Below, one piece after another: positions 7,960 through 24,960 of a stretch of DNA of 32,501 bases. Made by a program: the position numbers and the translations under genes. Source of the DNA: Patescibacteria group bacterium (GTDB lineage: Bacteria; Patescibacteriota; Minisyncoccia; Phycocordibacterales; UBA9973); assembly GCA_040390725.1 (NCBI GenBank), contig JAZJXT010000003.1:1-32501 (forward strand), in the 5' to 3' direction. Under the pieces are notes generated by a model. It searched no databases and was not told where the DNA came from. It was given only the letters and a program-made list of their open reading frames with translations. Every line of letters begins with the position of its first letter. Position 1 is the stretch's first letter.

Positions 7960-10641
7960 ATGCGTAAAAAATTAGAAACTAATAAAAATACTATGACCCC
8001 AAAGCAAAAAAAGCTTCATCAAAGCATTCAAAATGAACCTAAGCATGAAAACCTGACAAAAAGGTTAAGCCAATTTGAAAAGGAAGGCTTGAAAGAGGTG
8101 GCGATGGCCCGCATTGCGGAATTAAAATTATTGGAAAAAACAATAAAAGAAAAAGGCAAAAAAGCTGTTGAAAAAGCAGGGGACACACGAGGTGCACCCG
8201 AATTGCAAAAAGAAATTGCGAATATCACGGCTGAAGCTGAAAAAATTGTAGAAGAAACAACGGAAAAAACCGATGCAGTTGTCGAAGAAGAAACTGAAAA
8301 AACTCCGGAGACTGCCGAGACTATCGAAACAAAAGGAGTTTCTGAAAAAGTAAAAAATTTCTTTGCAAATAAACTGGCAAATATAGAAAAATTAAAAGAA
8401 TTAAACGAGCAAAAAGATACTCTGGAAAAACAAGCTCCGGATAATAATAACGATACCCCTGTTGTCGAACCGACGCCGGAAACACTTTCTCCGGAAATGG
8501 AAAAAATAAAAAAGGATGTAAAAAATGCTTTGAGTATAGAAATCCACCGCCGAAAAGCAGGTGGAGAAAAAGCCATGAATGAACTCGAGGAAAGATTATT
8601 TGCGGGAAAAGTTTTCCGAGAAAAAACAAAAGAGGAAAACGAGAAAAAGAAAATGGCGATGGAAGGATCCATGCAAAAGCTCATAAATAGGGGAGAAGAA
8701 GCTTGGAAAAATCTCGATAAAACTGTTTGGGGCAAGACGGCAAAAGTAGTAGCGAGTTCGGCCCTCATCGGAGCAGGAGTTCTTTACACTGCGTCAAATA
8801 TGGACATGATGGCTGCCGGAGAAATAGGCGGAAGATTATTGAGCAGGGTAGGTATGGCAACAGTATTAAACGTAGCTTTGACTAAAATTAATGTTCCACC
8901 AAAAACACAAAAATATGTAAAAATTGGATTGATGGGATTAGGGCTGGGGGCAGCGTTTATGGTGGGTGGGCCTGTTTCCGCGATAGTGGCCGGAGGTGGA
9001 ATGCTCGCTAAGCTCGGAGTGAAAAAACTGACAACATACCTAGAGGGACGAATTGAAAAAGAAGAGCAAAAAGTAGCGGAAAAATTCGACAGAGCATTTG
9101 ATATAAATAAGCTTTCGGGCAACAAAGAAATATTGGAACAAAATCGAAATAAGATTGATGGAAAAATAAAATGGATGAAATGGGGTAAAAAAGTTTTGAA
9201 TCTGGGTGTATCATTCGGCACAGGATTGGCTACTATTGGAGGAATGCAATATGCTGAAACGCATGACCTGCATACAACTTCAGATGTGCTAAATAAAACG
9301 ACAAACACAGCATCAGAAGTTATTGATAAAGTAAGAGGAGTTGAACATCCTATTGAAAACCCTGTAGAAAGTGCATCCGCAGAACATCAAGACAGTATTC
9401 CTGCTGGAACAGAAGTATCTGCGCACAGTCATGCCTCTGAAGTAGCGAGCAACCCAACTAATATAACTACAGAACATCATGAAGCTCCGGCATCAACGGC
9501 TGAAAGCGTAGTGCATCAAGGCGAGGGGCAAGAAAGCTCTTTCATCAGACAAATTGAAAACAATGAAGAGTTGGCAAGAAATGCAGGGTGGGACGGCAAG
9601 GAGGATCTGCATCATTTTGCAGGAAGAGCTGCACATAGCCTAGCTATGAAAGTAGGAATAGTTGACGCAGATGGGAATCAAGAAGCGGTTCACGCCGGAG
9701 AAAGCGTAGTATTGAAATTCGAAGATGGGCATTTTGCAGTGGATAAAATAAATACCGATGGAGAATTGGCGCACACTTATCACGAAGGCGACACTGTCAG
9801 TCATCATGATGAAACTGCACCAAAGGGAGATGAACATGCTCAACCAGAAAAACACGATGATCATACTCCTCCGGCAAAACCCGATGAACATGTTCCACCG
9901 GCAGGAGGAGAAAATAATAATCCCAATGAGCAAATTTCAAAAACATTAAGTGTTGTAGTAGACAGAGCTCAATATACAAATGATGATTATGATGATATGC
10001 ATGACCACTTGCCGGAAGTGGAACAAATGGAATTGGAAATGAAAGTTGACGCATTGATCGTCGATGAGAAACATTTGGCAGAAATGAGTACTATGGATCA
10101 CAATAATCCGGAGTATCAAGAATTGCTCAAGAAAGTTCAAATGGAACAACAAGATATCCAAGCAACATACGGAGATGTTATTAATTTTGATAAATTTGGA
10201 GAAAATCAAGACTTGCACCCAACAAACACGGAACACCATGATGACGATGACACTAAACACGAAACAGATTCTGAAAAAAATCCGGAACAAGAAGAAAACT
10301 TGATCAATAATGATGTATACAATCTAAGACCGCAAGCATTGGAATTGTACAATGATAATGCTGAATATATTTTACAAACAACCCCCGGAGGCCATGACTG
10401 GCATTCACTAATAACAATGCATTCAGCAAAAGAAATTTCTGATATGGATGGTCATACTCCTATATTTTCTTCTCTTAGATATTATATACACACCCTCGAA
10501 GAAGCTACCGGCCTGCACCCTAGAGGAGCAACTTACTTCAACCATACGCCAGAAACAGTCGAGCACTTTATAGTTCGTGCCGTGAAAGCAGCTGAAAAAC
10601 TGGATGTTTTAGATAATATCAAAATGAATGTTTTAAAATAA
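7960..10641 (+). CDS. large membrane-associated hypothetical protein: coiled-coil N-terminus, central Gly/Ala-rich hydrophobic helices, His/Asp-rich C-terminal half
   Basis: 893-aa ORF; hydrophobic segments VASSALIGAGVLY, IGLMGLGLGAAFMVGGPVSAIVAGGG, VLNLGVSFGTGLATIGG. Confidence 0.87.
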   Translation: MRKKLETNKNTMTPKQKKLHQSIQNEPKHENLTKRLSQFEKEGLKEVAMARIAELKLLEKTIKEKGKKAVEKAGDTRGAPELQKEIANITAEAEKIVEETTEKTDAVVEEETEKTPETAETIETKGVSEKVKNFFANKLANIEKLKELNEQKDTLEKQAPDNNNDTPVVEPTPETLSPEMEKIKKDVKNALSIEIHRRKAGGEKAMNELEERLFAGKVFREKTKEENEKKKMAMEGSMQKLINRGEEAWKNLDKTVWGKTAKVVASSALIGAGVLYTASNMDMMAAGEIGGRLLSRVGMATVLNVALTKINVPPKTQKYVKIGLMGLGLGAAFMVGGPVSAIVAGGGMLAKLGVKKLTTYLEGRIEKEEQKVAEKFDRAFDINKLSGNKEILEQNRNKIDGKIKWMKWGKKVLNLGVSFGTGLATIGGMQYAETHDLHTTSDVLNKTTNTASEVIDKVRGVEHPIENPVESASAEHQDSIPAGTEVSAHSHASEVASNPTNITTEHHEAPASTAESVVHQGEGQESSFIRQIENNEELARNAGWDGKEDLHHFAGRAAHSLAMKVGIVDADGNQEAVHAGESVVLKFEDGHFAVDKINTDGELAHTYHEGDTVSHHDETAPKGDEHAQPEKHDDHTPPAKPDEHVPPAGGENNNPNEQISKTLSVVVDRAQYTNDDYDDMHDHLPEVEQMELEMKVDALIVDEKHLAEMSTMDHNNPEYQELLKKVQMEQQDIQATYGDVINFDKFGENQDLHPTNTEHHDDDDTKHETDSEKNPEQEENLINNDVYNLRPQALELYNDNAEYILQTTPGGHDWHSLITMHSAKEISDMDGHTPIFSSLRYYIHTLEEATGLHPRGATYFNHTPETVEHFIVRAVKAAEKLDVLDNIKMNVLK

Positions 10642-10676
10642 AATTAAGTTATCATTAACAATAAACAAAAAATAAA

Positions 10677-10991
10677 ATGCAAAAACAAAACATGCAATCT
10701 GTGCGACAAAATATTATTAAATTATTCGATATCGACAAGCTTCCGGAAGACAAACAAGAAGAAATGATATCTGAAATAGGGTCTCTCATTTTTCAATCTG
10801 TACTGATAAGGGTTCTGCCCCTTTTGGAAGAAAAAGATTTGGCGGAATATGAGAAATTAACGGATCAAAAAATGGATATAGAAAAATTATTTGATTTCTT
10901 TTTCGAAAAAATACCGAATTTTTTGCAAATTGTGACTGAAGAATCAGAAAACTTCCGAAAAGACGCGACGCAAGTTTTAGAAAATATATAA
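10677..10991 (+). CDS. DUF5663-like small acidic helical protein (CPR-typical)
   Basis: Pattern IDKLPEDKQEEMI...IFQSVLIRV...LEEKDLAEYEKL...IPNFLQIVTEE recognised by eye. Confidence 0.7.
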   Translation: MQKQNMQSVRQNIIKLFDIDKLPEDKQEEMISEIGSLIFQSVLIRVLPLLEEKDLAEYEKLTDQKMDIEKLFDFFFEKIPNFLQIVTEESENFRKDATQVLENI

Positions 10992-11015
10992 ATTCTCCCT
11001 CATATCCTAAACTCA

Positions 11016-11024
11016 TGCTATAGT
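11016..11024 (+). promoter_or_regulatory. extended -10 promoter, leaderless geometry
   Basis: TGCTATAGT, 6 nt, then ATG 11031. Confidence 0.6.
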
Positions 11025-11030
11025 GTTTAG

Positions 11031-13082
11031 ATGCAACACTTGGCAGGGTTAAATAATGCTCAAAAAGAAGCGGCTCTTCATGTGGAAGGTCCGCTTCTTA
11101 TCGTCGCGGGCGCGGGCGCGGGGAAAACCAAGACAATTACACACAGAATTGTGAATTTGATAAAAAACGGCGTTGCTCCTGAGAAAATATTGGCGGTAAC
11201 ATTCACAAATAAGGCTGCAAAAGAAATGCGAGAGCGCGTAATTGCGGAAATTGAAAAAAATGCCGGAGGACAAAATAATACGCCATTTGTAAGCACTTTT
11301 CACTCTTTGGGAGTTTATATAATAAAAGAAAATGCGCGAATATTGGGGCTGACGCGATATTTCACTATTTTAGATGATTCGGATTCCAACTCTATTATTA
11401 AAGACGCGATAAAAGAATTGGGTTTAGATCCAAAACAATACGAACCAAGAAAAATAAAAAGTATTATCTCGCGAGAAAAAGGAAAATTCACAGAGCTTGA
11501 TAAATACACAGAGAGGGTAAATGATCCCGCCTATCAAGAAAGAAATGGTTTGAGTAGAGTGGTGGCGCAAGTTTGGAGTATTTACGAAAAAAGAAAAAGT
11601 AAGGAAAATTCTTTGGATTTTGACGACTTGCTTTTAAAAGCTACAAAACTCTTAAAAGAAAATGAAGAAGTGCGCAAAATTTATCAAGACCGATGGGAGT
11701 ATATACATATAGATGAATATCAGGATACAAATGAAGCGCAGTATTTGATGTCGAAACTTCTTTCGGAAAATAATAAAAATATTTGTGTAGTGGGTGATGC
11801 CGACCAAAATATTTATTCTTGGCGCGGAGCGAATTTGAAAAACATTTTAAGTTTTGAAAAAGATTATCCAAATGCGAAAATAGTAATGCTCGAAGAAAAT
11901 TATCGCTCGACCAAAAATATTTTGGAAGCGGCAAATGAAGTAATAAAGAAAAATAAATATCGTCCCGATAAAAACCTTTTCACTGAAAATGAAACTGGTG
12001 AAAAAATTTCTCTATATGAAGCGCTAGACGAAAACGACGAAGCAGAATTCGTCGCGACAAAAATTTTAGAAATAATGGACGGGAACCCTGCGGAATTTTT
12101 TCGGCAGGGTCTCTCGCAGGCTGACGAGCCGAGAGTGAGCGCTGTGCCAGCAGGCACAGACAGCGACCCTGTAGAAAAAGATTCCGCGGGGTTTCCTAGC
12201 ATCGCCATTCTTTACCGAGCCAACTTTCAATCACGCGCATTAGAAGAAGCGATGCTTCGATACAATATTCCTTATCAAGTTTTAGGTGTGAAATTCTTTG
12301 AAAGAAAAGAAATAAAAGACACGCTTGCGTATTTGCGCGCGGCATTAAATCCTGAAAGTTTGTCGGACATAAAAAGAATTATAAATTTTCCTGCAAGAGG
12401 AATAGGCAAGACTACTTTAGTGAAATTATTCGGGGGTGAAAAAGAAAACCTGCCGATAAAAATGCAAATAAAAATACAAAACTTTTATGAAACTCTGGAA
12501 GAAATAAGAGAAAAAATACAAACATCAAAAGCAAGCGACGTGATAAAATTCACAGTGAAAAAATCCGGTATTGAACATGAGCTTTTAGAAGGAGGGGAAG
12601 AAGAATTAGAAAGACTCGAAAATATAAAAGAACTTGCTACGCTTGCATTAAAGTACGATAACTTAGAAGAAGGCGCAGGTATAGAAAAGCTTTTAGAAGA
12701 TGCATCGCTCGCTTCTGACCAAGACAGTATAATGATTACAGAAAATAAAAAAGAGAAGAAAGAAGGTGTAAAACTTATGACAGTACATGCTTCAAAAGGG
12801 CTGGAATTTAAATATGTTTTTATCACCGGGCTCGAAGACGGGCTTTTCCCGCATCAAAAATTCGGCGAGACAAAAAGCGGGGAAGACAGCGAAGAAGAAC
12901 GTAGATTATTTTATGTGGCACTCACACGCGCTCGCAGTAAATTATTTTTATCATATGCAAATTTCCGTACCATTTTCGGCTCACGACAAATAAATTCCCC
13001 TTCGGAATTCCTATCTGATATACCCCCAGACATTTTAGAAAAAGGTGACGAAGACCCGAATGTAAAAACCATTTATATTTAA
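11031..13082 (+). CDS. pcrA: ATP-dependent DNA helicase PcrA/UvrD
   Basis: AGAGAGKT, IDEYQDTN, VVGDADQNIYSWRGA, LMTVHASKGLEF, EERRLFYVALTRA. Confidence 0.97.
   Translation: MQHLAGLNNAQKEAALHVEGPLLIVAGAGAGKTKTITHRIVNLIKNGVAPEKILAVTFTNKAAKEMRERVIAEIEKNAGGQNNTPFVSTFHSLGVYIIKENARILGLTRYFTILDDSDSNSIIKDAIKELGLDPKQYEPRKIKSIISREKGKFTELDKYTERVNDPAYQERNGLSRVVAQVWSIYEKRKSKENSLDFDDLLLKATKLLKENEEVRKIYQDRWEYIHIDEYQDTNEAQYLMSKLLSENNKNICVVGDADQNIYSWRGANLKNILSFEKDYPNAKIVMLEENYRSTKNILEAANEVIKKNKYRPDKNLFTENETGEKISLYEALDENDEAEFVATKILEIMDGNPAEFFRQGLSQADEPRVSAVPAGTDSDPVEKDSAGFPSIAILYRANFQSRALEEAMLRYNIPYQVLGVKFFERKEIKDTLAYLRAALNPESLSDIKRIINFPARGIGKTTLVKLFGGEKENLPIKMQIKIQNFYETLEEIREKIQTSKASDVIKFTVKKSGIEHELLEGGEEELERLENIKELATLALKYDNLEEGAGIEKLLEDASLASDQDSIMITENKKEKKEGVKLMTVHASKGLEFKYVFITGLEDGLFPHQKFGETKSGEDSEEERRLFYVALTRARSKLFLSYANFRTIFGSRQINSPSEFLSDIPPDILEKGDEDPNVKTIYI
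12081..12196 (+). repeat. GC-rich ~116-bp palindromic element inserted in-frame in pcrA
   Basis: ~31-bp imperfect terminal inverted repeats (GGGAACCCTGCGGAATTTTTTCGGCAGGGTC / GACCCTGTAGAAAAAGATTCCGCGGGGTTTCC) enclosing stems CTCTCG/CGAGAG and CTGTGCC/GGCACAG. Confidence 0.82.
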
Positions 13083-13117
13083 TTAGGTGCTAGCTACTAG
13101 GTTCTAGTTGCTAGTAA
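13083..13117. repeat. degenerate heptamer tandem repeat
   Basis: TTAGGTG CTAGCTA CTAGGTT CTAGTTG CTAGTAA. Confidence 0.65.
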
Positions 13118-13125
13118 AAAAAGAA

Positions 13126-13947
13126 ATGCAAAAAAAACACAAAGCAAAAAAATCATTGGGACAGAATTTTTTAAAATCAGAACCGGCATTAAAAGCTATC
13201 ATTGTGGCGGGTGAAATAAAACCCGATGATGTTATTTTAGAAATAGGACCGGGCAAGGGCGCATTGACCAAAAAACTTTTGGAATATTCTGGCACTGTGA
13301 TAGCGGTGGAAAAAGACCGCGAGCTTATTTCTTTTTTGCAGGAAAAATTTACAGAAGAAATTAAAAATAAAAAATTAATTTTAATAGAAGAAGATATACT
13401 GGAATTTAATTTAGAAAAATTTTCTAAATATAAAATAATTGCAAACATACCATACAACATCACTGGTGCAATTTTGAAAAAATTTTTAACAGAAAAAAAA
13501 CAGCCGGAACGAATGGTGCTAATGGTGCAAAATGAAGTGGCGAAAAGAATAGTTGCGCGGGACGGTAAAGAAAGTATATTATCAATTTCTGTAAAAGCTT
13601 ACGGCGAGCCGAGTATTGTGATGAAAGTCCCAGCGAGATATTTTTCCCCGGCACCAAAAGTAGACTCAGCTGTTATTTTAATAAAAAATATTTCGAGGGA
13701 AAGATTTCATACCACCACCTCACCCCTAGCCCCTCTCCTGAAAGGAGAGGGGGAAAGGACTAATAAACAAAAAATTTCAGAAGAAAAATTCTGGGAATTG
13801 GTAAAGGCCGGCTTTGCTCATAAAAGGAAAAAATTATCGGGAAATTTAAAAAATTTTCTAAATATAAAACTACCAGAGAAATTAAAAGATGCTCGAGCCG
13901 AAGAATTAACACTTTCAGACTGGCTCACACTGGCGAAAGACATTTAA
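13126..13947 (+). CDS. rsmA: 16S rRNA m6,2A1518/1519 dimethyltransferase RsmA/KsgA (ATG 13126 preferred)
   Basis: KKSLGQNFL, VILEIGPGKGALT, IANIPYNIT, FSPAPKVDSAV. Confidence 0.97.
   Translation: MQKKHKAKKSLGQNFLKSEPALKAIIVAGEIKPDDVILEIGPGKGALTKKLLEYSGTVIAVEKDRELISFLQEKFTEEIKNKKLILIEEDILEFNLEKFSKYKIIANIPYNITGAILKKFLTEKKQPERMVLMVQNEVAKRIVARDGKESILSISVKAYGEPSIVMKVPARYFSPAPKVDSAVILIKNISRERFHTTTSPLAPLLKGEGERTNKQKISEEKFWELVKAGFAHKRKKLSGNLKNFLNIKLPEKLKDARAEELTLSDWLTLAKDI
13717..13753 (+). repeat. short palindromic element, copy 3 (in-frame in rsmA)
   Basis: ACCTCACCCCTAG-CCCCTCTCCT-GAA-AGGAGAGGGG-G; encodes TSPLAPLLKGEG. Confidence 0.85.
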
Positions 13948-13950
13948 CAT

Positions 13951-13959
13951 TGGTATAAT
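13951..13959 (+). promoter_or_regulatory. extended -10 promoter, leaderless geometry
   Basis: TGGTATAAT, 6 nt, then GTG 13966. Confidence 0.7.
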
Positions 13960-13965
13960 ATCCAA

Positions 13966-14373
13966 GTGAAAAAATATATTTTTGTTTCGTTATTAGCTTT
14001 CTTTTTAGTATTTGTGGGTACGCATACGGCTTTCGCTGGTTTAGTTTTTTTTGCCGGAAAAGTCACAGTGGCTCCAATAGCGAAAGAAATACAAGGACCG
14101 GAAGATGCGGGCTATATTTGCCCAGTTGACGGAATAACATTTGATATATTGCCAACAATAAATGGTGGACCACAGGGACCATATATAATAAGATCAACAG
14201 GAGTCAAAAAAATAACTAAAGGCGTACCAACTACAAATAAATATATTACAGGATGGTATAATCCACTAAGAATACCTATAACTTGCATATATCCAGGCAG
14301 TAGCGCCACAGCAGTAATAAATATTTATTCGGTAAAAAGTTTTGGTCTGCCTGGAATTATCGGGAAAAAATAA
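13966..14373 (+). CDS. small secreted protein with one Cys pair
   Basis: Signal peptide MKKYIF...HTAFA; 135 aa. Confidence 0.8.
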   Translation: MKKYIFVSLLAFFLVFVGTHTAFAGLVFFAGKVTVAPIAKEIQGPEDAGYICPVDGITFDILPTINGGPQGPYIIRSTGVKKITKGVPTTNKYITGWYNPLRIPITCIYPGSSATAVINIYSVKSFGLPGIIGKK

Positions 14374-14387
14374 TTTAAAAAACATAA

Positions 14388-15353
14388 ATGTATAAAAAAT
14401 ATTTGCCGAGTAAAAATTTCATAATTTCACTTACAATAATTTTAGTTATTTTAACTATAATCTTTTCAATTTACAAAATCTTTTTCGGGGGCTCAAAAAC
14501 AACAGTAGTCAATCAACAAAATCAAAACAGCCAAAGTCAATTAGAAGTAGGCCAAATAACCACAGAAGACCTTTTGCAAAAAGACTCTGATGAAGATGGT
14601 ATTCCAGACTGGGAAGAAGCTCTTTGGGGCACGGATCCTCATAAAAAAGTAACTTTCGACAATGTCCCCGACAGTGAATATGTCAAAGAAAAAAAAGCCG
14701 AGTTAAAAATAAAATCCGGCACAAATACAAACAATACTATAGATAAAAGCGGAGAAAGTTCAAATGAAACAGAAAAATTCTCTCACGAATTTTTTGCCAC
14801 CTACGTAGCATTGCAACAATCCGGACAAAATGACCCCGATACTATGAAGAGCATGACCTCAGCACTTGGAGAAAGAGTCGGCGATCCGACTTTGCCAGAC
14901 AAATACAGCCAAGTAGATATACAAATAGGTAAAAGCGGATCCAGTGAAGAAACAGCATATTATAAAACAATTCAGAGTATTTTCAGCAAATATAAAAATA
15001 CAAAAATGGGCGAAGAGCCAGCCATAATATCTGAAATATCGAGCGAAGATGGCGCTCCAAAACAACAAGAAGATGAAGCTATCGCACAATTAAATACAAC
15101 AGCCAATGCATACCAGGATTTTTCTAAAAAATTAATAAATACTCCGACTCCAAATGAGCTTGTAGAATATGCATTAAAAATAGCCAATAGCTCTTATAAT
15201 CTTGGCATAGCTGTTCGAAATATGACGAAAGTATCCGATGACCCATTGGTTGGGCTTTCCGGACTAGCGCAATACCAAAAATACAGCGATACATTTTTAT
15301 CAGCTACCGATGAATTAAAAATACACTTAGGCATCAGAACTGAAACTCCATAA
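14388..15353 (+). CDS. membrane-anchored protein with TSP3-like Ca-binding motif
   Basis: N-terminal TM; DSDEDGIPDWEEALWGTDP; helical C-terminal domain. Confidence 0.82.
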   Translation: MYKKYLPSKNFIISLTIILVILTIIFSIYKIFFGGSKTTVVNQQNQNSQSQLEVGQITTEDLLQKDSDEDGIPDWEEALWGTDPHKKVTFDNVPDSEYVKEKKAELKIKSGTNTNNTIDKSGESSNETEKFSHEFFATYVALQQSGQNDPDTMKSMTSALGERVGDPTLPDKYSQVDIQIGKSGSSEETAYYKTIQSIFSKYKNTKMGEEPAIISEISSEDGAPKQQEDEAIAQLNTTANAYQDFSKKLINTPTPNELVEYALKIANSSYNLGIAVRNMTKVSDDPLVGLSGLAQYQKYSDTFLSATDELKIHLGIRTETP

Positions 15354-15400
15354 TTGATTTGGTAAAATTCAAATATGAGGTATAATTACAAAGCAAATAT

Positions 15401-18307
15401 ATGCGGATAAATAAAATAATAAAAAACATAACCGTCACTCTCCTAATAATGAGTTTTGTTGTTTTCCCATTTTTAAATTCCGCACCAAAAGCTTATGCGC
15501 AAACAGGCTCATTTGGCGTAAACCAATTCGGAGTCACCGGGGGTGTGGGCGGCTATATGAAATTAGTAGGCCCCTTAATACCAAAACTCCAAGGATGCGG
15601 AGCTATGTTAAAAAATAAAATACACAACATCTCTTCAGCATTTAGCGGCACAACAGTAATGGCTACCGACCAATCAGCCCACCCCACAGGTGCTGATAAT
15701 TTAGTTACATCAGGAAGCACAGAAGGAGTTGTAAACGAAGGATTAGCGGATGACACAACAAAAGCAACCCAAGTCGCCACATCAATACCGGTTATGAACC
15801 TTTCAGACCTTCTTATTCAACAAGAACAACTAACACATATTAAGCACACAGAAAAAACAGCTGACGAGGTAGCTGCCAACAAACTCTGCTTGGATAGTGT
15901 CGGCAAGGCAATGGTGAAATTAATTATCCGAAAATTAACTCAAGACATAATAGTATGGATAAATACGGGAGATTTTGGTGATCCTCTTTGGCCAAAAAAC
16001 AGGCCGAATTATTTTACAAGCCTGGGTAAAAATATTACATTGGCATTCAATAATGAAATAGCCGGACTTGGTCCATTTTCTAAGGCTTATATACGAAATA
16101 ATGCCATAGCATTTAGAACAAAATTTGCACAAAATGCACGATTCTCCTTCAATCAAGTGATGCAAGACACAAATCAACCCGTCACTTACGATAGTTTCAA
16201 TAATAATTTCGGATCCGGCGGATGGGGGGCTTGGGCTCTGTTAACACAAGTACCGGCCAATAATCCTTTTGGATTTAATTTAATGACTCAAAGCGAATGG
16301 AGCAAGAGAATGAATGGCGTTCAACAATCTCAAGCTCAAGACGTACGTGATGGCCTTCAAGAAGCCGGAGGATTTTTAGGTACTTATCGTTGCACCGCTC
16401 CTGAAGAATTAAAAAACCAAACTAAACAAGAATACGCTCGCAAGCTCGCATCAGGCAATCCCTTTACCCCAAAACTTAACGCTTGCCTAAGTGAAAGAAA
16501 CCCGTATTCTCTGAATGACACTACCACAGACTCTTCAAGCATGACAATAACACCTTATGATGCATGGGTCAGAGACCATATAGCCAAGTGTGATGCCATA
16601 TCAGCTCAAGCTGATGATTGGAATAAACACAACCTCTGCGCACCAGATGCTTGGGCATATGTAACACCAGGGAAGATGGTTGCAGAAGCGGCTACGGGCC
16701 TGATGCATCACCAACAAGATTCACTTCTCAATGTAAATGACTTAAATGATGCCATTGCCGCTATTTTAGATTCAGCATTAAATAAATTCGGCGGAGACCT
16801 CATAGACAAAGGCCTTGCCGGCATGGATAAAAATTCAGACTACAATCAATACGACTTGACTGATGCTTATTCCCAAGACAGCTCGGGACAAAATAATACA
16901 AACATCCCGGACGGATTTGATAACGTCACATGGTTCCAACAACATCCGAATTTTGATATTACAAAAGATTTGAATCAGGCCCTTATAGATGAACAGAGAA
17001 CATACATGAACAAATTAAAGGATCAAAATGCAGAATTAATTTCAGATGGTACTCCAGGATTTTACACAGGGTTAATACCTACTATCAACCAACTTGATTA
17101 TTGTATTCCGGGGCCACATCCAGGATGGGAAGATGATTCAAGACAAGTTTTATCATCCGTAGAAGACAAAATGGCTCCAGAAACAGAAGACAGTCTCCAC
17201 AACAAAACACTAAATGACGTTTCAGAATATACATCGAGTTATGCACCATTGGCTGCGGGAGCAGCAGGACTAGTGATAGGAGCGACATGGGGAACAGCTG
17301 CTGCTTCATGGACAGGACCGGGAGCAATAATTGGGACAGTGATAGGTGCTATCGTCGGCAGCATAGTGGCTTTTGTTATCCAAGATGTCAATGATTCTAA
17401 TGATACATTAAAAGTACACACATACTACGCGGGTCAAATCAATGTTATCACTGGACTACGTATTCCTATGCCTACTTATGAAAAATATGTAAAAAATCCC
17501 AAGGTCGCAGCCGTAGATTCAAAACAGGGTGCTGTTTCCGCAGTGGACGAAACTTTCAACAGATACATACAAATGGTTCATGCAATATATAACGACAAAG
17601 ATATGCCTTCATATGCACAACAGGGCGCAGCTGAATACAGAAAAATGTCCGGTTATTTAGAAATGAAAAAAGAAAATGATGCTAGTATTACTGCCAAGCA
17701 AGGTATTGTAGATATGTTGGTAAAATTAAAAAGCCAAATGGAAGACCTACTGGCTCAAACAAAACTTGACCCTAGCGATACAAATTATATTGATCCTGAA
17801 GGCCAAGACTACAAAGATAAATTGCAAGTCATAATAACTACATTCGCCAATCTTGCATCGAATTTAGCTTCCGGAGATGACATTGCAAACGTAAACAACT
17901 TAATAAAGCAAATGAAAGACAGTGAGCAGTATGTTGCTGGCAGTCTCTTAGTAGCTTGTGAAAAAACAGAAAGAAATGGTACAGACAATAATCTACCGCA
18001 AGACATAAAAGATACAATGAAAATGACTTATTATCCTCCACATTTGCATGATTATCCTGCAACTGGCAGAACTTGGGGCCCGGGCTTCTTGAGTGCTATG
18101 ACATTTAATGATGATGCTAATAGCAACGAACCAAACCCTCCGGAACACTATCATACTGATTATGTACCGGGGAGAGACAGTGCATCGGGTAAATTGCCTA
18201 GATTAAATATAGGCGACTTATTCCCAGCCGGGAAATGGGGCACTTATCTAGGACGTCCCGTAAAAGATAATGGAGGAGTATGGGAAACAATAATCGGTGT
18301 TTATTAA
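15401..18307 (+). CDS. large secreted/membrane Cys-containing protein with glycine-zipper hairpin
   Basis: Signal peptide ending AYA; GGWGAW...PANNPFG...GGFLG...VTPG motifs I associate with Parcubacteria T4SS-neighbourhood proteins; hydrophobic hairpin at 17246-17380. Confidence 0.82.
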   Translation: MRINKIIKNITVTLLIMSFVVFPFLNSAPKAYAQTGSFGVNQFGVTGGVGGYMKLVGPLIPKLQGCGAMLKNKIHNISSAFSGTTVMATDQSAHPTGADNLVTSGSTEGVVNEGLADDTTKATQVATSIPVMNLSDLLIQQEQLTHIKHTEKTADEVAANKLCLDSVGKAMVKLIIRKLTQDIIVWINTGDFGDPLWPKNRPNYFTSLGKNITLAFNNEIAGLGPFSKAYIRNNAIAFRTKFAQNARFSFNQVMQDTNQPVTYDSFNNNFGSGGWGAWALLTQVPANNPFGFNLMTQSEWSKRMNGVQQSQAQDVRDGLQEAGGFLGTYRCTAPEELKNQTKQEYARKLASGNPFTPKLNACLSERNPYSLNDTTTDSSSMTITPYDAWVRDHIAKCDAISAQADDWNKHNLCAPDAWAYVTPGKMVAEAATGLMHHQQDSLLNVNDLNDAIAAILDSALNKFGGDLIDKGLAGMDKNSDYNQYDLTDAYSQDSSGQNNTNIPDGFDNVTWFQQHPNFDITKDLNQALIDEQRTYMNKLKDQNAELISDGTPGFYTGLIPTINQLDYCIPGPHPGWEDDSRQVLSSVEDKMAPETEDSLHNKTLNDVSEYTSSYAPLAAGAAGLVIGATWGTAAASWTGPGAIIGTVIGAIVGSIVAFVIQDVNDSNDTLKVHTYYAGQINVITGLRIPMPTYEKYVKNPKVAAVDSKQGAVSAVDETFNRYIQMVHAIYNDKDMPSYAQQGAAEYRKMSGYLEMKKENDASITAKQGIVDMLVKLKSQMEDLLAQTKLDPSDTNYIDPEGQDYKDKLQVIITTFANLASNLASGDDIANVNNLIKQMKDSEQYVAGSLLVACEKTERNGTDNNLPQDIKDTMKMTYYPPHLHDYPATGRTWGPGFLSAMTFNDDANSNEPNPPEHYHTDYVPGRDSASGKLPRLNIGDLFPAGKWGTYLGRPVKDNGGVWETIIGVY

Positions 18308-18308
18308 A

Positions 18309-20516
18309 ATGCAAAAAAATATAAAAAAAATAATATTAGGATTGATATTTATCTTGCCTTTATGTGCACCTCTTTCGTCTTTTGCTCTTTCCAACAAAGA
18401 CCTCGTCGTCACAAGCACTGCATCTGGAGTCACAGACGTCTCAGCTACATTTTCCGGATCAATCGACATGGACAACACAGATACAAATGTGAGACTGGGA
18501 TATTTCCGATATGCAACATTAGATAAGCCTCCTATTTTTTGCAATGATATTTATGGTTCCAATATGTTTTCGACCAATGATGCAAATCTAGGCAATTCCG
18601 GCTCGGCGACTTTTTCTAAAACTGTTTCCAATCTCACTCCCGGTTCAACTTATTATTATTGTGCTGTCGTTTCAGACATAAACCAAAATATCATAAATTA
18701 TGGCGGACCGGTAAAATTCACTACTAGATCAACAGTACAAGCAACCATCCAAACCAAGCAACCAATAATCCTCGACAGTACTTCTGCCGACTTGAATGGT
18801 TTTTATAATACAAACGTCGTGGCCAAAACTTGGTTTGAGTACAGAAAAACTGGAGATACTGCATGGATAAAAACTGACACAGAGGCGCATATACCTAATA
18901 CAACTTCTCACTATGTTTCCGGAGAAATTAAATTTTCACTCACAGGAGCAACGACAGACACTCAATACGAATACCGAGCGGGAATACAAGACAATGACCA
19001 AGGCAGTCCAACTTTTGGTAAAAATATTTACGGAAATGTTGTTACTTTTTATTTAAATTCTCCTGTAAATGTTAACACGGGAACTTTCGATGATGGAGTA
19101 TCATATGATCAAATGCCTGACTTTTCTTGGGATAACGGCACCACTAGCAGTAATAATAATCTGGGGACACCGATAACTGGCGGGGGTAATGGCACAGGAG
19201 GCACCGGTACAAATGGTTCAGGCACAGGGACTGGTTCCGGCAGTGGCAGTGGCACTGGCACAGGAACGGGAAGTACCGGATCAACAGGCACCGGCACAAA
19301 TGGCTCAGGAACTAATGGCACAAATGGAGGAACGCTAGGCACAGGGAGTAATGGTTCATCCGGAGGAATAGTTACATTTTCCGGCAGTGGCACAGCAGGA
19401 CAAGGAATTTTTGGACCATCCACCAACATTGAATATGGCAATAGCACAGGTACAGGCAGTGGTAGCGGTAGTGGCACTAATAGTGGAGCTGTAATTGGCT
19501 CTGCAGAAATCAATGCTAAAATTACTGCCTATCAACAAGCCAATATTAAATACAAAACGCTAAAAGATAACATAATCCCTGCTATAGCAAACTTTACCAG
19601 CCTGCTAACTGATGCAGCAGGTGGTATAAACCCATTCGATGTTAAATATAGCAGTGAAACTTTTACGCAATTCAAGAATCAACTTTCCGATAAGCAAAAA
19701 CCTATTTTTGATTCCGCATTTCAATCATTAATAACAAAAATAAATGGACTTCTAGATATCGGGGGCAATCAAATACCGGCAGACTTGCGAGATAAAGCAA
19801 AATTACTTCTAGACCCAAACACCAGTATGGGTACCATTAAATCCATTCTCGATAAATTTTCACAAGAAGGCGGAATAGTACTGACTAACCAAGAAAAACT
19901 TACCGAATTAGCATTAACAGCAGCAGAGGCAGCGAAGCCCGGCAGTACTGCGGGGAGCTTAAGTAGTGGCACAGGATCTGGCATAAATGGTGGGCCTAAC
20001 GGTACGGGAACTGGTGCAGGTATTGGTTCAGGCACAGGGACTAGTTCTGGAATAGGAAATGGTGCTGGGTCCAGCAATGGAACAAGTTCAGGAACTGGCA
20101 CGGGTGCTAGTGCTAGTACAATTACTAGTACAATAAAAGCGCCAGAAATTGGTGATATCAGGAAACCTATTTCAGATGCGATAGTGCGCACCGGCGAAGG
20201 AGTGGAGACTGTATTTGCCAGACAAATAATAGCTTATCCGCAACTAGCGAAACTTTACGGCTACACAGCAGGCTCAAACTTAAAAGTTTTTGCCGGAGAA
20301 CTAGCGCATACTTTTGCTAAACTTTTCGGATATTATAGCGGAGGAGGCAGGGAAATACGCGTCCTGCCTGCAAACATAGCTGCATATGAACTCGGAATGA
20401 AAGACAATAAACTCGCAGTCTATGAATATTATGGCAATAAAATAGAAAATATCGCGACCGTAGCTCCAATTCTGAAAAATGCTTTGGGTTACGAATATTA
20501 TTTCATTAAAAAATAA
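18309..20516 (+). CDS. secreted FN3-like protein with two Gly/Ser/Thr-rich tracts and an uncharacterised C-terminal domain
   Basis: Signal peptide ending SFA; FN3-like SNLTPGSTYYY and TDTQYEYRA; GTGS repeats. Confidence 0.85.
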   Translation: MQKNIKKIILGLIFILPLCAPLSSFALSNKDLVVTSTASGVTDVSATFSGSIDMDNTDTNVRLGYFRYATLDKPPIFCNDIYGSNMFSTNDANLGNSGSATFSKTVSNLTPGSTYYYCAVVSDINQNIINYGGPVKFTTRSTVQATIQTKQPIILDSTSADLNGFYNTNVVAKTWFEYRKTGDTAWIKTDTEAHIPNTTSHYVSGEIKFSLTGATTDTQYEYRAGIQDNDQGSPTFGKNIYGNVVTFYLNSPVNVNTGTFDDGVSYDQMPDFSWDNGTTSSNNNLGTPITGGGNGTGGTGTNGSGTGTGSGSGSGTGTGTGSTGSTGTGTNGSGTNGTNGGTLGTGSNGSSGGIVTFSGSGTAGQGIFGPSTNIEYGNSTGTGSGSGSGTNSGAVIGSAEINAKITAYQQANIKYKTLKDNIIPAIANFTSLLTDAAGGINPFDVKYSSETFTQFKNQLSDKQKPIFDSAFQSLITKINGLLDIGGNQIPADLRDKAKLLLDPNTSMGTIKSILDKFSQEGGIVLTNQEKLTELALTAAEAAKPGSTAGSLSSGTGSGINGGPNGTGTGAGIGSGTGTSSGIGNGAGSSNGTSSGTGTGASASTITSTIKAPEIGDIRKPISDAIVRTGEGVETVFARQIIAYPQLAKLYGYTAGSNLKVFAGELAHTFAKLFGYYSGGGREIRVLPANIAAYELGMKDNKLAVYEYYGNKIENIATVAPILKNALGYEYYFIKK
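19178..19490 (+). repeat. coding low-complexity G-T/S-N repeat (second tract ~19940-20120)
   Basis: GGCAC/GGCAGT-type hexamer periodicity encoding GTGSGSGSGTGTG. Confidence 0.8.
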
Positions 20517-20554
20517 AGAAATAAAAATGTTTGTATGTTAGAATTAAAACGATA

Positions 20555-23266
20555 ATGAAAAAAACATTTTCCAAAATTTTAATCCCACTTATTATCTTGA
20601 GCTTTTTCTTAGCCCCGATGATTGGTTTTCCTTTTAAAGCCAGTGCTTTGGCGTCAGAATTCACTCTTACTGCAAACCCCCCATCATCAACAGATACATT
20701 TGTATCACTTACAGCTTCCATCAGTAACGAAATTATAACTCCGGGAACCGTATTACGAATTTATTTTTACCCTGTTGGCACTATATTAAAAAAGCCAAAT
20801 CAAGATTTCCCAATACCTGAAGAAATAATAAAATCTAAAAAAGGCTTTATGACGGAAAAAATTATTAATCTTCCACCAGGAAACTATCAAACCTATGCAG
20901 AACTTTTTTCTGACCAAGGAAGCCTGATATACGGCACATCCAACACTGCATCTTTTACAATAACAAGTAAAGAAATGCAATATAGCGTCCCAGAATTTAT
21001 TCCACCGACCAATGTAGACGGCTGGAGATTTGATTGTTCGGGTCTATATCTTTCGCCAACTAACATAAAATGCGTTATAGCTTCCGTTTTGTACGATTTT
21101 ATTTTTACACCATTGTCTGACTTTGCTAGGTTCTCAGCAGGAGTACTCGACAAATTTATTTATTATTCCACCCTTAGCAGTTCATATTCACAAAGCTTTG
21201 TAGGCAAAGCTTGGGCTGCCGTGCGAGATATCTCTAATATATTTTTTATAATTGCTTTACTTTATGTAGCTATCCAAACTATCTTAGGCCTGGGGAGTAA
21301 AGCCAAACAAATGATAGCCACGATCATCGTGGTGGCTCTTATTATAAATTTCAGTTTATTTTTTACCGAAGTCATTATTGACGGATCAAATATCCTGGCA
21401 CGGGTATTTTATAATCACATAACTTCTAAAAATAAAAACGGTAAAGAAATAACAAATGCCGGTGGTGAAAGATCTATTTCTTTAGCCCTAGCCTCAGAAT
21501 TTGACCCGCAAAAAATAGTCCCGTCAAAAAAACAGTTTGAAGACAATTTGCAAGGACCATTTATTTTTACAACAATAATGGCAATAATAATAATGCTATA
21601 TATGGCGTATTGTTTTCTTTCTGTATCATGGCTGTTTCTGGGAAGAGTCTGCACTTTATGGATGGCAATGGTTTTCTCACCACTGGCTTTCGCTTCTTAT
21701 GTCGTGCCTTTTGATATTGCCGGCTTCGGTCATCAAAAATGGTGGGAAACTTTTCTAAAAAGCGCATTCCTGGCGCCAATATATATATTTTTCCTTTATG
21801 TGATAATTCTTTTTGGAGATGCCATACGTAGCGTTGTAGGAGATTTTCAAAATTCTACAGACTGGCTGGATCAAATAATGTATGTGGCTATGCCTTTCGC
21901 AATCGTTTACTTCCTTTTAAATAAATCCAAAAAACTAGCTGAAGATTATTCCGGCGACATGGCAGGAGCCGTCGGCAAAATCGCCGGCATTTACACTGGG
22001 CTACTCAGCGCCGTTGTCTTCGGTGGGGTAGGCTTCGCGGGCAGAGTCGGCCTCGGCCGAGTGGGGAATATGGTTTCAGAAAGTGCTTGGATGAAAGACC
22101 TAATAGGTTCACAGAAAAAAGTAAAATTAATGGGCATGGAATTAAACTTACAATCATGGCTTGGCAAAAGAGTTAGAAGTGGTGCCGAAACACTGGAAGG
22201 AGCGAGCTACGACGTAAGAGGATTAAAAATAGGAGGCAAAGATATAGCAGGGCATACTGGCTGGGATTTGGGTAAACCTCAAGAAGGTGGATTTAAAAAG
22301 ATGAGAGAGGAGCAAGGAAAGAAGAGACGAGAAAGGTCAGAAAAACTATCAGTAGGACATGACGAAGAAGAGCATCACATGCTAGAAGAGATGAAAGTAA
22401 TATTGCAAGACTTGTATTCAACAGGTAAGCCTTTAACTGATGCATGTGATAACTTAATAAAATTAGACACGACTAGATTAAACAATGCAATAAAACAAAA
22501 AAATCCAGAAAAAGCAGAATTCTATGGAGACAGAGTAGCAAATGCAAACGAAATAAGAAGAGCTGCAAAGGGTGTGTATGACTTTAAGGGAGATTATAAA
22601 CACGTTGATGAAATGAAATATGTCGTAGACCCAGAAACACACAAAGGTAAACTACAAAAAACAGGAAAGCGCGTGCAAATACAAACAGGTGTTACAAAAT
22701 ATAAAACGGGTGAATTAATAGAAGTAAAAAATGCAGAAACTGGAGAAATGGAAATGAAGGAAGAAGAGAAATTATATGCGGAAGCAGAATTTAAATCAGA
22801 GCTAGAAAAAAATCCGGAAGATTATAAATTCTCTAAAAATAAAAAATATATGAAAGAGGTCACGGAAGAAAGTCCATTCAAGAGAATAAATCTAAGTGGT
22901 GACGTGTTGTATAAAGAATTTGAAAAAAATGAAAAAGGTGAATTATTAAAAGATACAGCTGGTGATTTTATATTCACTGGAAAAGTTAGCAAAACAGTAT
23001 CCTATCTAGACCCGGAAAAGAAAATAAAAGCATACGCACCATTAGGAATGGACCCTCTTGAAGATGAAAGTATCGTTGTGCAACAAGGTAAAATCGCTCA
23101 GATAGGCTACCAGCGTAAATTAGGCGAAGCAGCTAGTGCTACAAGTGATGTGGCAAAAATATTTAACACAGTCACAAGCTTAGGAGGAGACAGTATAGAA
23201 GAAATAGAAAATTCAAGACATGCCACATTGTCTGGAGCGAAATTAGATAAAGGAGGAGGACATTAA
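20555..23266 (+). CDS. VirB6/TrbL-like polytopic membrane protein with N-terminal Ig/FN3-like module and long charged C-terminal tail
   Basis: WAAVRDISNIFFIIALLYVAIQTIL...IVVALIINFSLFFTEVIIDGSN...RVCTLWMAMVFSPLAF...KWWETFLK; many TM helices; upstream of PrgI and VirB4-like genes. Confidence 0.72.
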   Translation: MKKTFSKILIPLIILSFFLAPMIGFPFKASALASEFTLTANPPSSTDTFVSLTASISNEIITPGTVLRIYFYPVGTILKKPNQDFPIPEEIIKSKKGFMTEKIINLPPGNYQTYAELFSDQGSLIYGTSNTASFTITSKEMQYSVPEFIPPTNVDGWRFDCSGLYLSPTNIKCVIASVLYDFIFTPLSDFARFSAGVLDKFIYYSTLSSSYSQSFVGKAWAAVRDISNIFFIIALLYVAIQTILGLGSKAKQMIATIIVVALIINFSLFFTEVIIDGSNILARVFYNHITSKNKNGKEITNAGGERSISLALASEFDPQKIVPSKKQFEDNLQGPFIFTTIMAIIIMLYMAYCFLSVSWLFLGRVCTLWMAMVFSPLAFASYVVPFDIAGFGHQKWWETFLKSAFLAPIYIFFLYVIILFGDAIRSVVGDFQNSTDWLDQIMYVAMPFAIVYFLLNKSKKLAEDYSGDMAGAVGKIAGIYTGLLSAVVFGGVGFAGRVGLGRVGNMVSESAWMKDLIGSQKKVKLMGMELNLQSWLGKRVRSGAETLEGASYDVRGLKIGGKDIAGHTGWDLGKPQEGGFKKMREEQGKKRRERSEKLSVGHDEEEHHMLEEMKVILQDLYSTGKPLTDACDNLIKLDTTRLNNAIKQKNPEKAEFYGDRVANANEIRRAAKGVYDFKGDYKHVDEMKYVVDPETHKGKLQKTGKRVQIQTGVTKYKTGELIEVKNAETGEMEMKEEEKLYAEAEFKSELEKNPEDYKFSKNKKYMKEVTEESPFKRINLSGDVLYKEFEKNEKGELLKDTAGDFIFTGKVSKTVSYLDPEKKIKAYAPLGMDPLEDESIVVQQGKIAQIGYQRKLGEAASATSDVAKIFNTVTSLGGDSIEEIENSRHATLSGAKLDKGGGH

Positions 23267-23276
23267 AAAATAAAAT

Positions 23277-23783
23277 ATGATTGAAATATTAAAAAATGTA
23301 ATAAAAAAAGAAATGGTTAAACTTCCTAAAACAACACAGGAAATATTTAATCTTTCTGATTTTGAAAAGCAATTGGATGAAATAAGCAAAGAATATTTCC
23401 AAGATGACGAAGAAAAAATAAATAATTTCCAAGCTGAAACTGTATTATTGCTTTTAGGAGTTAACCCTCTAAATAATTATGCTAAAAAAGTTGCATATAG
23501 TTCAATCCTGGCCATGGAAGATGCTGAAAAAATAACAAAAAAAGCTATAGAAAAAATATTTATTCCGCTAGCAGAAAAAGTAAACGAGAACATAAAAAGT
23601 AAACTAAAAAGTAAAAACCCTAAATACGATCAAAACATGAAGTTCATTCTTTCCGGAGGAGATTATTCTCACTTTCTTGAAAATCCAAACATGGTTGGGA
23701 CAGTCGTCGAAGAAGAACAACCGAAATATGTCGCGGACACTTTCTCAAAAGTTGAAGATTTAAAAAATAAATTTGTTGTATAA
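23277..23783 (+). CDS. helical hypothetical protein, paralogue of the next gene
   Basis: FQAETVLLLLG aligns with LELETELLLCG of 23826-24497. Confidence 0.82.
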   Translation: MIEILKNVIKKEMVKLPKTTQEIFNLSDFEKQLDEISKEYFQDDEEKINNFQAETVLLLLGVNPLNNYAKKVAYSSILAMEDAEKITKKAIEKIFIPLAEKVNENIKSKLKSKNPKYDQNMKFILSGGDYSHFLENPNMVGTVVEEEQPKYVADTFSKVEDLKNKFVV

Positions 23784-23825
23784 TTAAAGCAGTTTAACAA
23801 GTTTAGATAAATACAAAAAATAATT

Positions 23826-24497
23826 ATGAATGACACAATAGATTTACTACAAGTAAAAATAGAAAATGCAAAAAAGGAATTATCCGAGGAGACTAGGCGC
23901 GCGATAGACGCCGTGGATTGGAGAAAAGTCATCCTCGACATGAGATTAAAAAAAGGCTATAGCCTCGAACAACTGGAAGACTTGGAGCTCGAGACGGAGC
24001 TTTTGCTTTGCGGCTTAATAAATACACAAGACTATCCAAAGGAATTGGCAAACAGTTTAAAATTGCCTCGAGCCAAAGCCGACCAATTGGCAAATGAAAT
24101 GAATGAATTGGTCTTCAAAAAAATCCGTGATGAAATGATAAAATTACTGGATAAAAAGCAACCAGCAAACACAGAACCCGTAAAAAACATAGTGAGTCCT
24201 GCGCCAGTTCCACCTATTAGAAGTTTCGCAGATATGCGAATAAAAAAAGAGGAAGAGCAAGTATTGGAAATAGCCGGAATAAAAATAAATGAGATACCAG
24301 GTGTAGATAAAGCTCCGGCTCCTGCCACGCCACAACCTACGTCCACAATGATGCCAATACAGAAACTTTCCGGGGCTTTCCAAATGCCGGCAAAAAAAAC
24401 TGAATACACGATAAATAATATTTCAAAAACCCCGGCAATGCCGACAAATACAAATACTTCTCTGCCAAAAGCAGATCCATACCGAGAGCCAATTTAG
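23826..24497 (+). CDS. hypothetical protein with Pro-rich linker and C-terminal DPYREPI motif
   Basis: 223-aa ORF directly upstream of prgI-like gene. Confidence 0.85.
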   Translation: MNDTIDLLQVKIENAKKELSEETRRAIDAVDWRKVILDMRLKKGYSLEQLEDLELETELLLCGLINTQDYPKELANSLKLPRAKADQLANEMNELVFKKIRDEMIKLLDKKQPANTEPVKNIVSPAPVPPIRSFADMRIKKEEEQVLEIAGIKINEIPGVDKAPAPATPQPTSTMMPIQKLSGAFQMPAKKTEYTINNISKTPAMPTNTNTSLPKADPYREPI

Positions 24498-24516
24498 TTA
24501 AATTTTTGAAATGTTG

Positions 24517-24522
24517 TATAAT
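24517..24522 (+). promoter_or_regulatory. -10 box, leaderless geometry
   Basis: TATAAT, 6 nt, then ATG 24529. Confidence 0.6.
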
Positions 24523-24528
24523 TGATTT

Positions 24529-24960
24529 ATGCAATTCAAGGTCCCACAATTTTTAGACATAGAAGACAAAATTTTCGGGCCATTTACTTTTAGGGAGTTT
24601 GCTTATTTGGCCGGGGGAGGGGGTCTGTGTTATGTGCTTTTCAAGCTTTTAGGTTTTTGGTATGGTGCAATACCGATACTCTTAATAGGAGGACTGGCAG
24701 CATTGCTGACTTTCTACAAACCAAACAATAAACCATTTATAAATATGCTTGAGGCCGGTGTAAAGTACGCCATCCAAGACAAACTTTATATCTGGGAAAA
24801 AAGAATGGTGAAAACCAGCGAGAAAATAGAAGCTGAAAAAAAACAAAAAGAAATGGAAACACCGACCCAAAAGAAAATGGCTCTAGGGGAAAGTAAATTA
24901 AAAGATTTAGCATGGGGTTTGAATGTTTTAGATTTAGAAAAAGAAAATAAAAATCAATAA
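24529..24960 (+). CDS. PrgI family protein (VirB3 analogue)
   Basis: MQFKVPQFLDIEDKIFGPFTFREF, two TM helices, then KPNNKPF. Confidence 0.88.
   Translation: MQFKVPQFLDIEDKIFGPFTFREFAYLAGGGGLCYVLFKLLGFWYGAIPILLIGGLAALLTFYKPNNKPFINMLEAGVKYAIQDKLYIWEKRMVKTSEKIEAEKKQKEMETPTQKKMALGESKLKDLAWGLNVLDLEKENKNQ

Follow-up and report, generated by a model that had tools for sequence, protein, structure and literature searches.

A domain of about 115 residues common to two otherwise unrelated envelope proteins of a Patescibacteria genome, one of them encoded in a type IV secretion-like gene cluster

The first 32,501 nt of contig JAZJXT010000003.1 (assembly GCA_040390725.1, forward strand) from a Patescibacteria group bacterium, the whole of which stretch is called the window below, contain the genes for two proteins, here named A and B, that share a domain designated X. 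X is a genuine domain common to two otherwise unrelated envelope proteins: A is a large, fast-evolving membrane protein, its gene lying about 10 kb upstream of that for B, and B is an accessory insert in a gene cluster resembling those for type IV secretion systems (T4SS). As to its role, we hold it possible, at a probability of roughly 0.4, that X is a non-catalytic envelope-binding or retention module, as its sequence and setting would suggest. The two genes and the two copies of X are located as follows.

7960..10641, + strand: gene A, 893 aa, comprising a K/E-rich N-terminus, membrane helices, a linker, X, a His/Asp/Pro-rich linker and a conserved C-terminal region
9490..9861, + strand: domain X, A-type (profile positions 3-117 of 119, 113 bits, E 5e-33; hhalign 99.8% at aa 507-637)
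18309..20516, + strand: gene B, 735 aa from ATG 18309; the open reading frame (ORF) opens at GTG 18297, and the 735-aa form is found in public collections
20160..20513, + strand: domain X, B-type, at the C-terminal extreme, ending YEYYFIKK-stop (profile match 20160-20510, positions 2-118, 162 bits)

Comparison of whole A with whole B by BLASTP yielded a single significant segment, which is ungapped (21/59 identical residues, 44.3 bits, E 2e-08), and hhalign of 8 A-type against 19 B-type domains gave 99.7% over 114 columns (E 1.7e-26). An earlier note on this DNA had aligned the A segment 9505-9690 with the B segment 20178-20363 without gaps and counted 22/62 identical residues; a recount gave the same figure, and both of the peptides quoted there occur as written in the translations. 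When shuffled controls were run, the alignment score was never reached: by Smith-Waterman, the X regions of A and B scored 92 against 26.8 +/- 4.2 for shuffles (0/2000 as high), and the whole proteins scored 94 against 43.6 +/- 5.4, with a maximum of 66 (0/300 as high). The entire genome (829 kb, 36% G+C, 7 contigs) was scanned as well, and each X segment matched only its partner among 5058 six-frame ORFs (E 3.3e-05 and 1.7e-05), while a 167-sequence X profile recovered just the A and B ORFs (3e-45 and 1.3e-23), the next best match having an E of 1.3. No cryptic X copies were found in the other window proteins (hhalign probability <=1%, 16 families).

The note had spoken of a ~62-aa domain. 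The domain is real, but its true length is ~115-119 aa, 9505-9690 being its first half only, and the weaker similarity which was said to continue beyond the aligned segments is the second half of the same domain. Just 62 residues were seen at first because the second half of the A-type X in the window is degenerate; in the tree its branch measures 1.02, compared with 0.05-0.3 in its closest kin. In B, on the other hand, the whole C-terminal stretch is kept to the last residues in 18 same-genus orthologues and in one from another family of the same order (L020), with the B-type consensus reading ...DAIVRYxEGIETVFxRQI...YGY...FGYV...GKEIRVSxPDIAAYxL...KLTVYEYY...YEYYFKK-stop, and the B-type X of the window is 47-66% identical to those of 17 same-genus orthologues. 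A orthologues have a full-length X in an internal position, ending ...KYEYK.

A 23-row alignment of X contains four invariant residues, E14, G15, R22 and E113, and near-invariant V10, E17, I24, G35, F45, A54, G58, Y59, E66, R68, V69, A76, Y77, E90, Y112 and Y114, with no Cys, His, Ser or Asp column reaching the 90% mark. Aromatic residues number 15-22 of about 119 in B-type copies. The invariant E14 and E113, together with the near-invariant E17, E66 and E90, could be read as the active-site residues of a small enzyme, for instance a Glu-dependent wall glycosidase serving T4SS or pilus assembly. This we regard as highly improbable, given that no hydrolase family is matched in Pfam, NCBIfam or PDB, that the cluster already has an amidase with an M23 peptidase nearby, and that the small size and Tyr-rich surface of X fit binding better.

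Covariation within X was assessed by mean-field direct coupling analysis (DCA) of 167 sequences with an effective number (Neff) of 139, and is exploratory since Neff/L is ~1. It places helix 16-25 antiparallel to helix 42-57 (pairs 16-54, 21-50 and 25-46), with strong i+4 periodicity in the latter, and suggests two hairpins, 74-81/86-92 and 95-101/106-116 (pairs including 79-88, 74-93 and 97-107), as well as pairing of strand 74-81 with the C-terminal strand (75-110). Helix 1 is linked to the sheet by the highest-ranking pair, 20-88 (11.7 sd). Because the helix pair is tied in this way to the beta-sheet, the analysis indicates that X would form one globular, compact alpha+beta unit with the helix pair packed on the sheet.

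The description of X as unrecognised holds throughout the libraries searched. Pfam has no match to X in proteins A and B, in the excised segments or in 23 aligned domains; NCBIfam has nothing for A or B; and three X profiles run against PDB sequences retrieved only insignificant, unrelated chains. A 44-residue stretch of agmatine deiminase (E 0.027-0.37) and a 27-residue stretch of 2gqb (E 0.008) from the PDB profile searches were judged to be chance matches. In the ESM Atlas, B residues 621-739 gave no feature match, and the structure rows all had TM <0.5 and pointed to no consistent family (FliK C-terminal domain twice, AlkZ-like, ComEC and others). The only names attached to X relatives in the sources are ‘hypothetical protein’ and ‘Ig domain-containing protein’, in Candidatus Nomurabacteria records, and a full-text literature search found no paper treating domain X. 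The X family is thus described in no library, and the B family may already figure as an unnamed cluster in the profiles specific to the candidate phyla radiation (CPR) of a published T4SS survey (PMC12102498).

The same note had proposed that X resembles an expanded LysM, which would make it a member of the LysM superfamily with a beta-alpha-alpha-beta core, an inserted helix and a beta-meander, binding GlcNAc glycans such as peptidoglycan. The searches lend this little encouragement. The Pfam LysM model (PF01476, gathering score 20.9 bits) matched neither A, B, the excised segments nor the 23 domains even at E<=1, and a six-frame scan of the genome with it found only two copies, at 1494-1625 and 1647-1775, both in an M23 peptidase. 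A local LysM hidden Markov model (HMM) run against the 23 X domains reached a best E of 0.11, and hhalign of X gave 0.3% against 8 LysM copies, <=2.2% (P 0.02) with a diverse set of 49 copies taken from 30 loci in the phylum, and 0.4% against the M23-LysM family alignment, compared with 99.8% for the positive control of one LysM half against the other. X is moreover ~115 aa in length, not ~44, and its strongest covariation joins helix 1 to the C-terminal sheet. These sequence comparisons therefore do not support the LysM assignment as proposed.

A LysM-like core within X is nevertheless possible, because the weak local alignment (P 0.02) is co-linear over the whole LysM, whose columns 3-44 map onto X 12-72 with helix 1 of X as an insertion. 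In it, IV-x-x-EG of X is paired with tV--GD, LAKxYGY with IAKKYG, and GKEIRV with GQxLxI. The A-types and the distant relatives also share the motif likeness hV-x-x-G-[ED]-G-h-x-x-h-h (as in VHKGDGLERVL), the distant lineages match the first half of X only, and pairs 10-69 and 12-66, which would correspond to beta1-beta2 pairing, rank 123 and 169 of 6555 in the DCA, their columns being nearly invariant. On balance, we consider membership of the LysM superfamily unlikely.

We then looked at how X is distributed. Its profile was searched against 1.84 billion cluster representatives and matched 622 of them at E<=1e-3, 358 at <=1e-10 and 147 at <=1e-30. Among the best 150 representatives, X ends <=10 residues from the C-terminus in 144, the remaining 6 being five A-type proteins and one fragment; 140 of the 150 begin with M, and an N-terminal hydrophobic stretch is present in 112 of those 140. 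The 40 aa ahead of X consist on average of 71% G/S/T/N/P/D/Q (146 representatives). Pfam domains, sought in 75 of the best 150, were confined to FN3-like ones (Pur_ac_phosph_N, fn3, PhoD_N) or CARDB in 24 proteins, and 51 had nothing; PF05345 and PF00041 are among the precomputed domains. A single-sequence X query matched 22 of 61 relatives, one of these being a DnaJ protein (L022, E 0.004) that was dropped as a false positive.

X is largely confined to one genus-level lineage. It was detected in 6/401 genomes sampled across the phylum, two of which belong to the same genus as the window, and in 73/151 genomes sampled within that genus, the latter tally including a genome flagged as unpublished (G528). 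A related-locus search with the window's own domain retrieved no relatives, and one with the domain of a relative retrieved three loci. The records of its relatives are titled Candidatus Nomurabacteria, plus one metagenome-assembled genome labelled Burkholderiales (L054), whose B-type X is 77% identical to a Nomurabacteria copy and whose contig is probably mis-binned. Three more distant lineages match the first half of X only (positions ~8-63), with the motif V-x-K-G-D-G-h-x-x-V-L-x-R-Q-h; upon re-scanning, two of the distant first-half matches passed (G405 and G418), and G431 was not recovered at E<=0.1. The matching proteins in G405, G418 and G084 (1244-1554 aa) have no Pfam domain and no similarity to window proteins (blastp 1e-4), so that no T4SS neighbours were recognised at the distant matches, and neither these proteins nor their neighbours hinted at a function.

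In a 31-row tree, A-type and B-type X form two clades with 100/100 support, and they are thus old paralogues rather than products of a recent duplication inside this genome. X is always present as a single copy, never in tandem. Within the genus, matches were split into the two types by bit score, the assignment having been verified by inspection only for G000, G003, G029, G033 and G315; this yields 57 matches of the B-type, spread over 56 genomes, and 33 of the A-type. Of the 151 genomes, 15 have both types (in 11 of the 15 on one contig and 9.6-15.6 kb apart), 17 the A-type alone and 41 the B-type alone. In G315, contig 9 carries two A-type genes (L046 and L047, with ORFs of 810 and 807 aa); about 3.8 kb separates them, both encode a full X, and the B-type gene of this genome is on another contig.

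Homologous domains often self-associate, and the co-occurrence of both types in those 15 genomes might reflect docking of the X of B onto the X of A, with A as the membrane receptor for B. Such pairing, the note having spoken of a docking module, found no positive evidence here and appears improbable: by the same split, 41 of the 56 B-bearing genomes have no profile-detectable A-type X and 17 genomes have the A-type only; G017 has B, yet its conserved site holds no A gene; divergence is fast in the A-type and the B-type is conserved, and nothing suggests that the two co-vary; and the net charges of the two types are not consistently complementary.

The hosts of the two copies are otherwise unrelated, and the note's description of them agrees with their sequence and hydropathy: A has no N-terminal signal but has membrane helices, B is secreted, and in each a low-complexity linker stands ahead of X. 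The parts of B are the following.

18309..18386, + strand: Sec-type signal peptide (MQKNIKK..., hydrophobic core at aa 12-30, SFA/L; putative cleavage site)
18402..19061, + strand: two FN3-like repeats in the conserved N-terminal part (Pur_ac_phosph_N at 19.3 bits, below the cut-off of 30)
19143..20138, + strand: variable middle, with Gly/Ser/Thr/Asn-rich linkers (~aa 283-400 and 560-614) around a helical insert, unaligned in relatives

ATG 18309 lies 2 nt past the stop of the preceding 968-aa gene and is the likely start. The FN3-like domains N-terminal to X exceed Pfam cut-offs in several relatives though not in the B of the window. The N-terminal part of B (~aa 3-300) is 30-48% identical in 12 loci by tblastn, compared with the 47-66% given above for X, which is the best-conserved part of the protein. 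B has no LPXTG motif and no C-terminal hydrophobic segment, its C-terminus reading ...LGYEYYFIKK. No run with B was listed in the RNA datasets; one DNA run contains it and may be the sample from which the genome came.

Protein A begins with ~250 K/E-rich residues, and a ~75-residue linker separates its helices from X.

8731..9264, + strand: membrane-helix block, aa ~258-435, Gly/Ala-rich, with ~5 helices read by eye
10348..10638, + strand: conserved C-terminal region, aa ~797-893 (tblastn to orthologues: aa 797-889 in L048, 813-891 in L036)

Judged by eye from its K-rich loops and the positive-inside rule, A would have its N-terminus inside and its C-terminus outside. A Kyte-Doolittle scan at a threshold of 1.6 flagged only aa 325-343, and since just one helix is flagged, the outside position of X in A is something we infer. 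Orthologues of A occur upstream of DUF5663-UvrD in L026, L035, L036 and 4/5 further loci, and are absent from that site in G017. The search for relatives of A residues 505-893 found one other protein, P0152. X could not be detected by profile in 4/4 further A orthologues (best E 0.0035), and is visibly kept only in the G006 orthologue.

The T4SS-like cluster that contains B, of the monoderm type, was delimited by Pfam, NCBIfam, a transmembrane scan and the conserved order in related loci, and consists, in order, of orf135, orf321, orf968, B, orf911, orf168, orf223, PrgI/VirB3, TrsD-like, VirB4, orf324, VirB2-like pilin with amidase, and orf446.

13966..31585, + strand: T4SS-like cluster containing B
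20531-23266, + strand: orf911, polytopic, 911 aa, with ~8 hydrophobic segments
24529-24960, + strand: PrgI/VirB3, a library match
24967-25611, + strand: TrsD-like protein, 214 aa (TrsD and VirB4 N-terminal part, E 1e-11 to 2e-6, below cut-offs)
25624-27453, + strand: VirB4, a library match
28454-30238, + strand: ORF with a VirB2-like pilin segment (aa 287-348) and Amidase_2 (aa 426-574)

On account of its hydrophobic segments and of weak matches to mycoplasma transmembrane families of integrative and conjugative elements and to conjugal-transfer families (E ~5e-6, below cut-offs), orf911 is probably a VirB6-like channel protein. In the pilin-amidase ORF, alignment in 12 related loci is limited to ~aa 196-392, and the flanks of the pilin segment, the amidase included, are therefore not conserved there.

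The gene order [A]-DUF5663-UvrD-KsgA-(orf135)-orf321-orf968-B-orf911-orf168-orf223-PrgI-TrsD-like-VirB4-orf324-pilin-orf446 recurs over ~20 kb in 14 same-genus loci. B lies directly upstream of the VirB6-like polytopic gene in 12/12 B-bearing loci, a count that speaks of constancy of position and not of frequency, because the loci were picked for holding an X match; this synteny upholds the view that the secreted host of X belongs to the T4SS-like locus. In one of the loci (L035, contig 14 of G033), the UvrD alignment falls into two pieces (aa 2-261 and aa 212-683) ~1 kb apart, which suggests an insertion or a split gene.

VirB4 was found in 150/151 genomes of the genus, in a tally that includes the unpublished G528, G474 and G523, versus 73/151 for X, and in 6/6 genomes examined with an X-less cluster, orf321-orf968-orf911 follow one another without a B gene between them. 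B is thus an accessory insert in the cluster. These counts bear upon the idea that X is a structural part of the apparatus, such as a VirB8-like (NTF2-like) assembly factor. Its helices followed by a beta-sheet are loosely NTF2-like, B adjoins the VirB6-like gene, and VirB8 homologues are nearly undetected in the phylum according to the T4SS survey (PMC12102498). Apart from the absence of the whole B gene from the six X-less clusters, however, X has no Pfam match to VirB8, PrgL or TcpC models and no PDB sequence match; VirB8-like proteins are not built from FN3 repeats and 300 residues of disordered linker behind a cleaved signal; and the strand pairings suggested by DCA (beta3 with beta4 and beta6) are not those of a simple meander. 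We give such a role very little credence.

As for the surroundings, X had been thought to link the upstream cassette to the T4SS-like locus. For the ORFs at 2434-7786, blastp at E<=1e-8 found no orthologue among 25 related loci, which leaves A as the sole conserved neighbour, and the linkage to a cassette was not borne out. That region holds three large charged ORFs (743, 237 and 791 aa) that lack membrane segments and are unmatched in Pfam and NCBIfam; they have the appearance of a strain-specific insertion separating gene A from the M23-LysM peptidase gene. At the other end of the window (31582-32493, minus strand) there are R3H/Jag-like and YidC genes, so that the cluster adjoins the rnpA-yidC-jag neighbourhood, in keeping with PMC12102498, where Patescibacteria T4SS are reported to lie close to the origin.

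In the reading that we prefer, X would act outside the cytoplasmic membrane by binding a component of the cell's own envelope, which might be an envelope protein, wall glycan or a different wall polymer. X would keep B on the cell surface beside the secretion apparatus, the linker holding the FN3-like modules of B out, and the X of A would connect that protein, from the membrane, to the same envelope layer. Non-covalently anchored surface proteins of monoderms (SLH, LysM, GW, WxL) are usually built of a cleavable signal, then a passenger that varies, a disordered linker and, last, a conserved C-terminal domain. Envelope binding is suggested by the correspondence of B to this layout, by the lack of any other recognisable anchor in B after signal-peptide cleavage, by X being the best-conserved part of B, and by its conserved residues, Glu, Arg and Tyr, which do not look like a catalytic set; if X lies immediately outside the membrane in A, this would suit a tie between membrane and wall. 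That a wall is present is indicated by the peptidoglycan enzymes encoded in the window, M23+LysM and Amidase_2.

Several considerations weigh against envelope binding. The A-type X evolves fast enough to escape its profile in all of the further orthologues mentioned, which would be odd if both types bound one conserved polymer. B is missing from ~60% of the genomes of the genus that keep the T4SS cluster, so that the role of X is dispensable for the apparatus. Envelope binding and the outside localisation of X are both deduced from sequence, the latter, in the case of A, from a topology drawn by eye with one helix flagged. Finally, conservation of a distal domain would be just as compatible with an adhesin whose working head it forms as with an anchor.

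Surface adhesins contact target cells in monoderm conjugation systems, and X could be a distal target-binding head of this kind, B being a T4SS-associated adhesin that contacts a host or prey cell. B is encoded in the T4SS-like cluster, is secreted, and has FN3/Ig repeats and a long linker; its presence in only part of the genus is what would be expected of a host-range accessory; and the role appears to be unfilled, PrgB-like adhesins having gone undetected in Patescibacteria in the T4SS survey (PMC12102498). With neither LPXTG nor a C-terminal helix in B, however, X is the only conserved candidate for holding the protein on the cell, and receptor-binding heads usually vary more than stalks, yet X is the most conserved part of B. 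We therefore rate the adhesin head as a doubtful explanation of X, and continue to favour envelope binding.

What is new here is the X domain family, while the architecture carrying it is already familiar. With its 622 cluster representatives, X is a clean, alignable family, fit for deposition as a new domain of unknown function. It points to an accessory secreted protein within a T4SS-like cluster and to a conserved membrane protein nearby, and offers a handle on how host-dependent Patescibacteria furnish the cell surface near their secretion apparatus; the narrow range of taxa limits the immediate reach. In PMC12102498, T4SS-like clusters are described as near-universal in Patescibacteria and as essential for epibiotic growth in Saccharimonadia. 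A bolder and rather unlikely proposition is that X represents a new fold-level envelope-docking class which attaches the accessory FN3-repeat protein B beside the T4SS, with A carrying the ancestral copy, and that B is the first T4SS-associated surface adhesin of the CPR. If true, B would fill the role of PrgB-type adhesins missed by surveys.

Comparison with known systems shows several partial likenesses. Like VirB8, PrgL, TraM and TcpC, X is encoded near virB4 and virB6 and would be an alpha+beta domain of similar size outside the membrane, but it is not a core component, B being absent from ~60% of cluster-bearing genomes, and it differs from them in domain context and has no sequence match to them. 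PrgB of pCF10 resembles B in that both are large secreted repeat proteins encoded in a MPF_FATA-type T4SS cluster; unlike PrgB, B has no LPXTG and no adhesin-domain homology, and is accessory in its genus. As noted in the survey (PMC12102498), VirB8 homologues are nearly undetected in Patescibacteria and no PrgB-like adhesin was found there. With LysM, X has in common that it is a small extracytoplasmic module which follows flexible linkers in proteins, secreted or membrane-bound, of bacteria with a wall, with an N-terminal V-x-x-G-[DE]-x-h-x-x-h-h and an ‘AKxYG’ stretch, and non-catalytic binding is plausible for both; it differs in length (~115 vs ~44 aa), in its extra helix and the four- to five-stranded C-terminal sheet that covaries with helix 1, in occurring singly and never in tandem, and in giving no HMM or profile-profile match. 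The SLH, GW, WxL and CWB2 anchoring domains have models in Pfam, none of which matches X, and X also occurs internally in a membrane protein; their layout of signal peptide, variable passenger, low-complexity linker and terminal conserved domain is likewise that of B.

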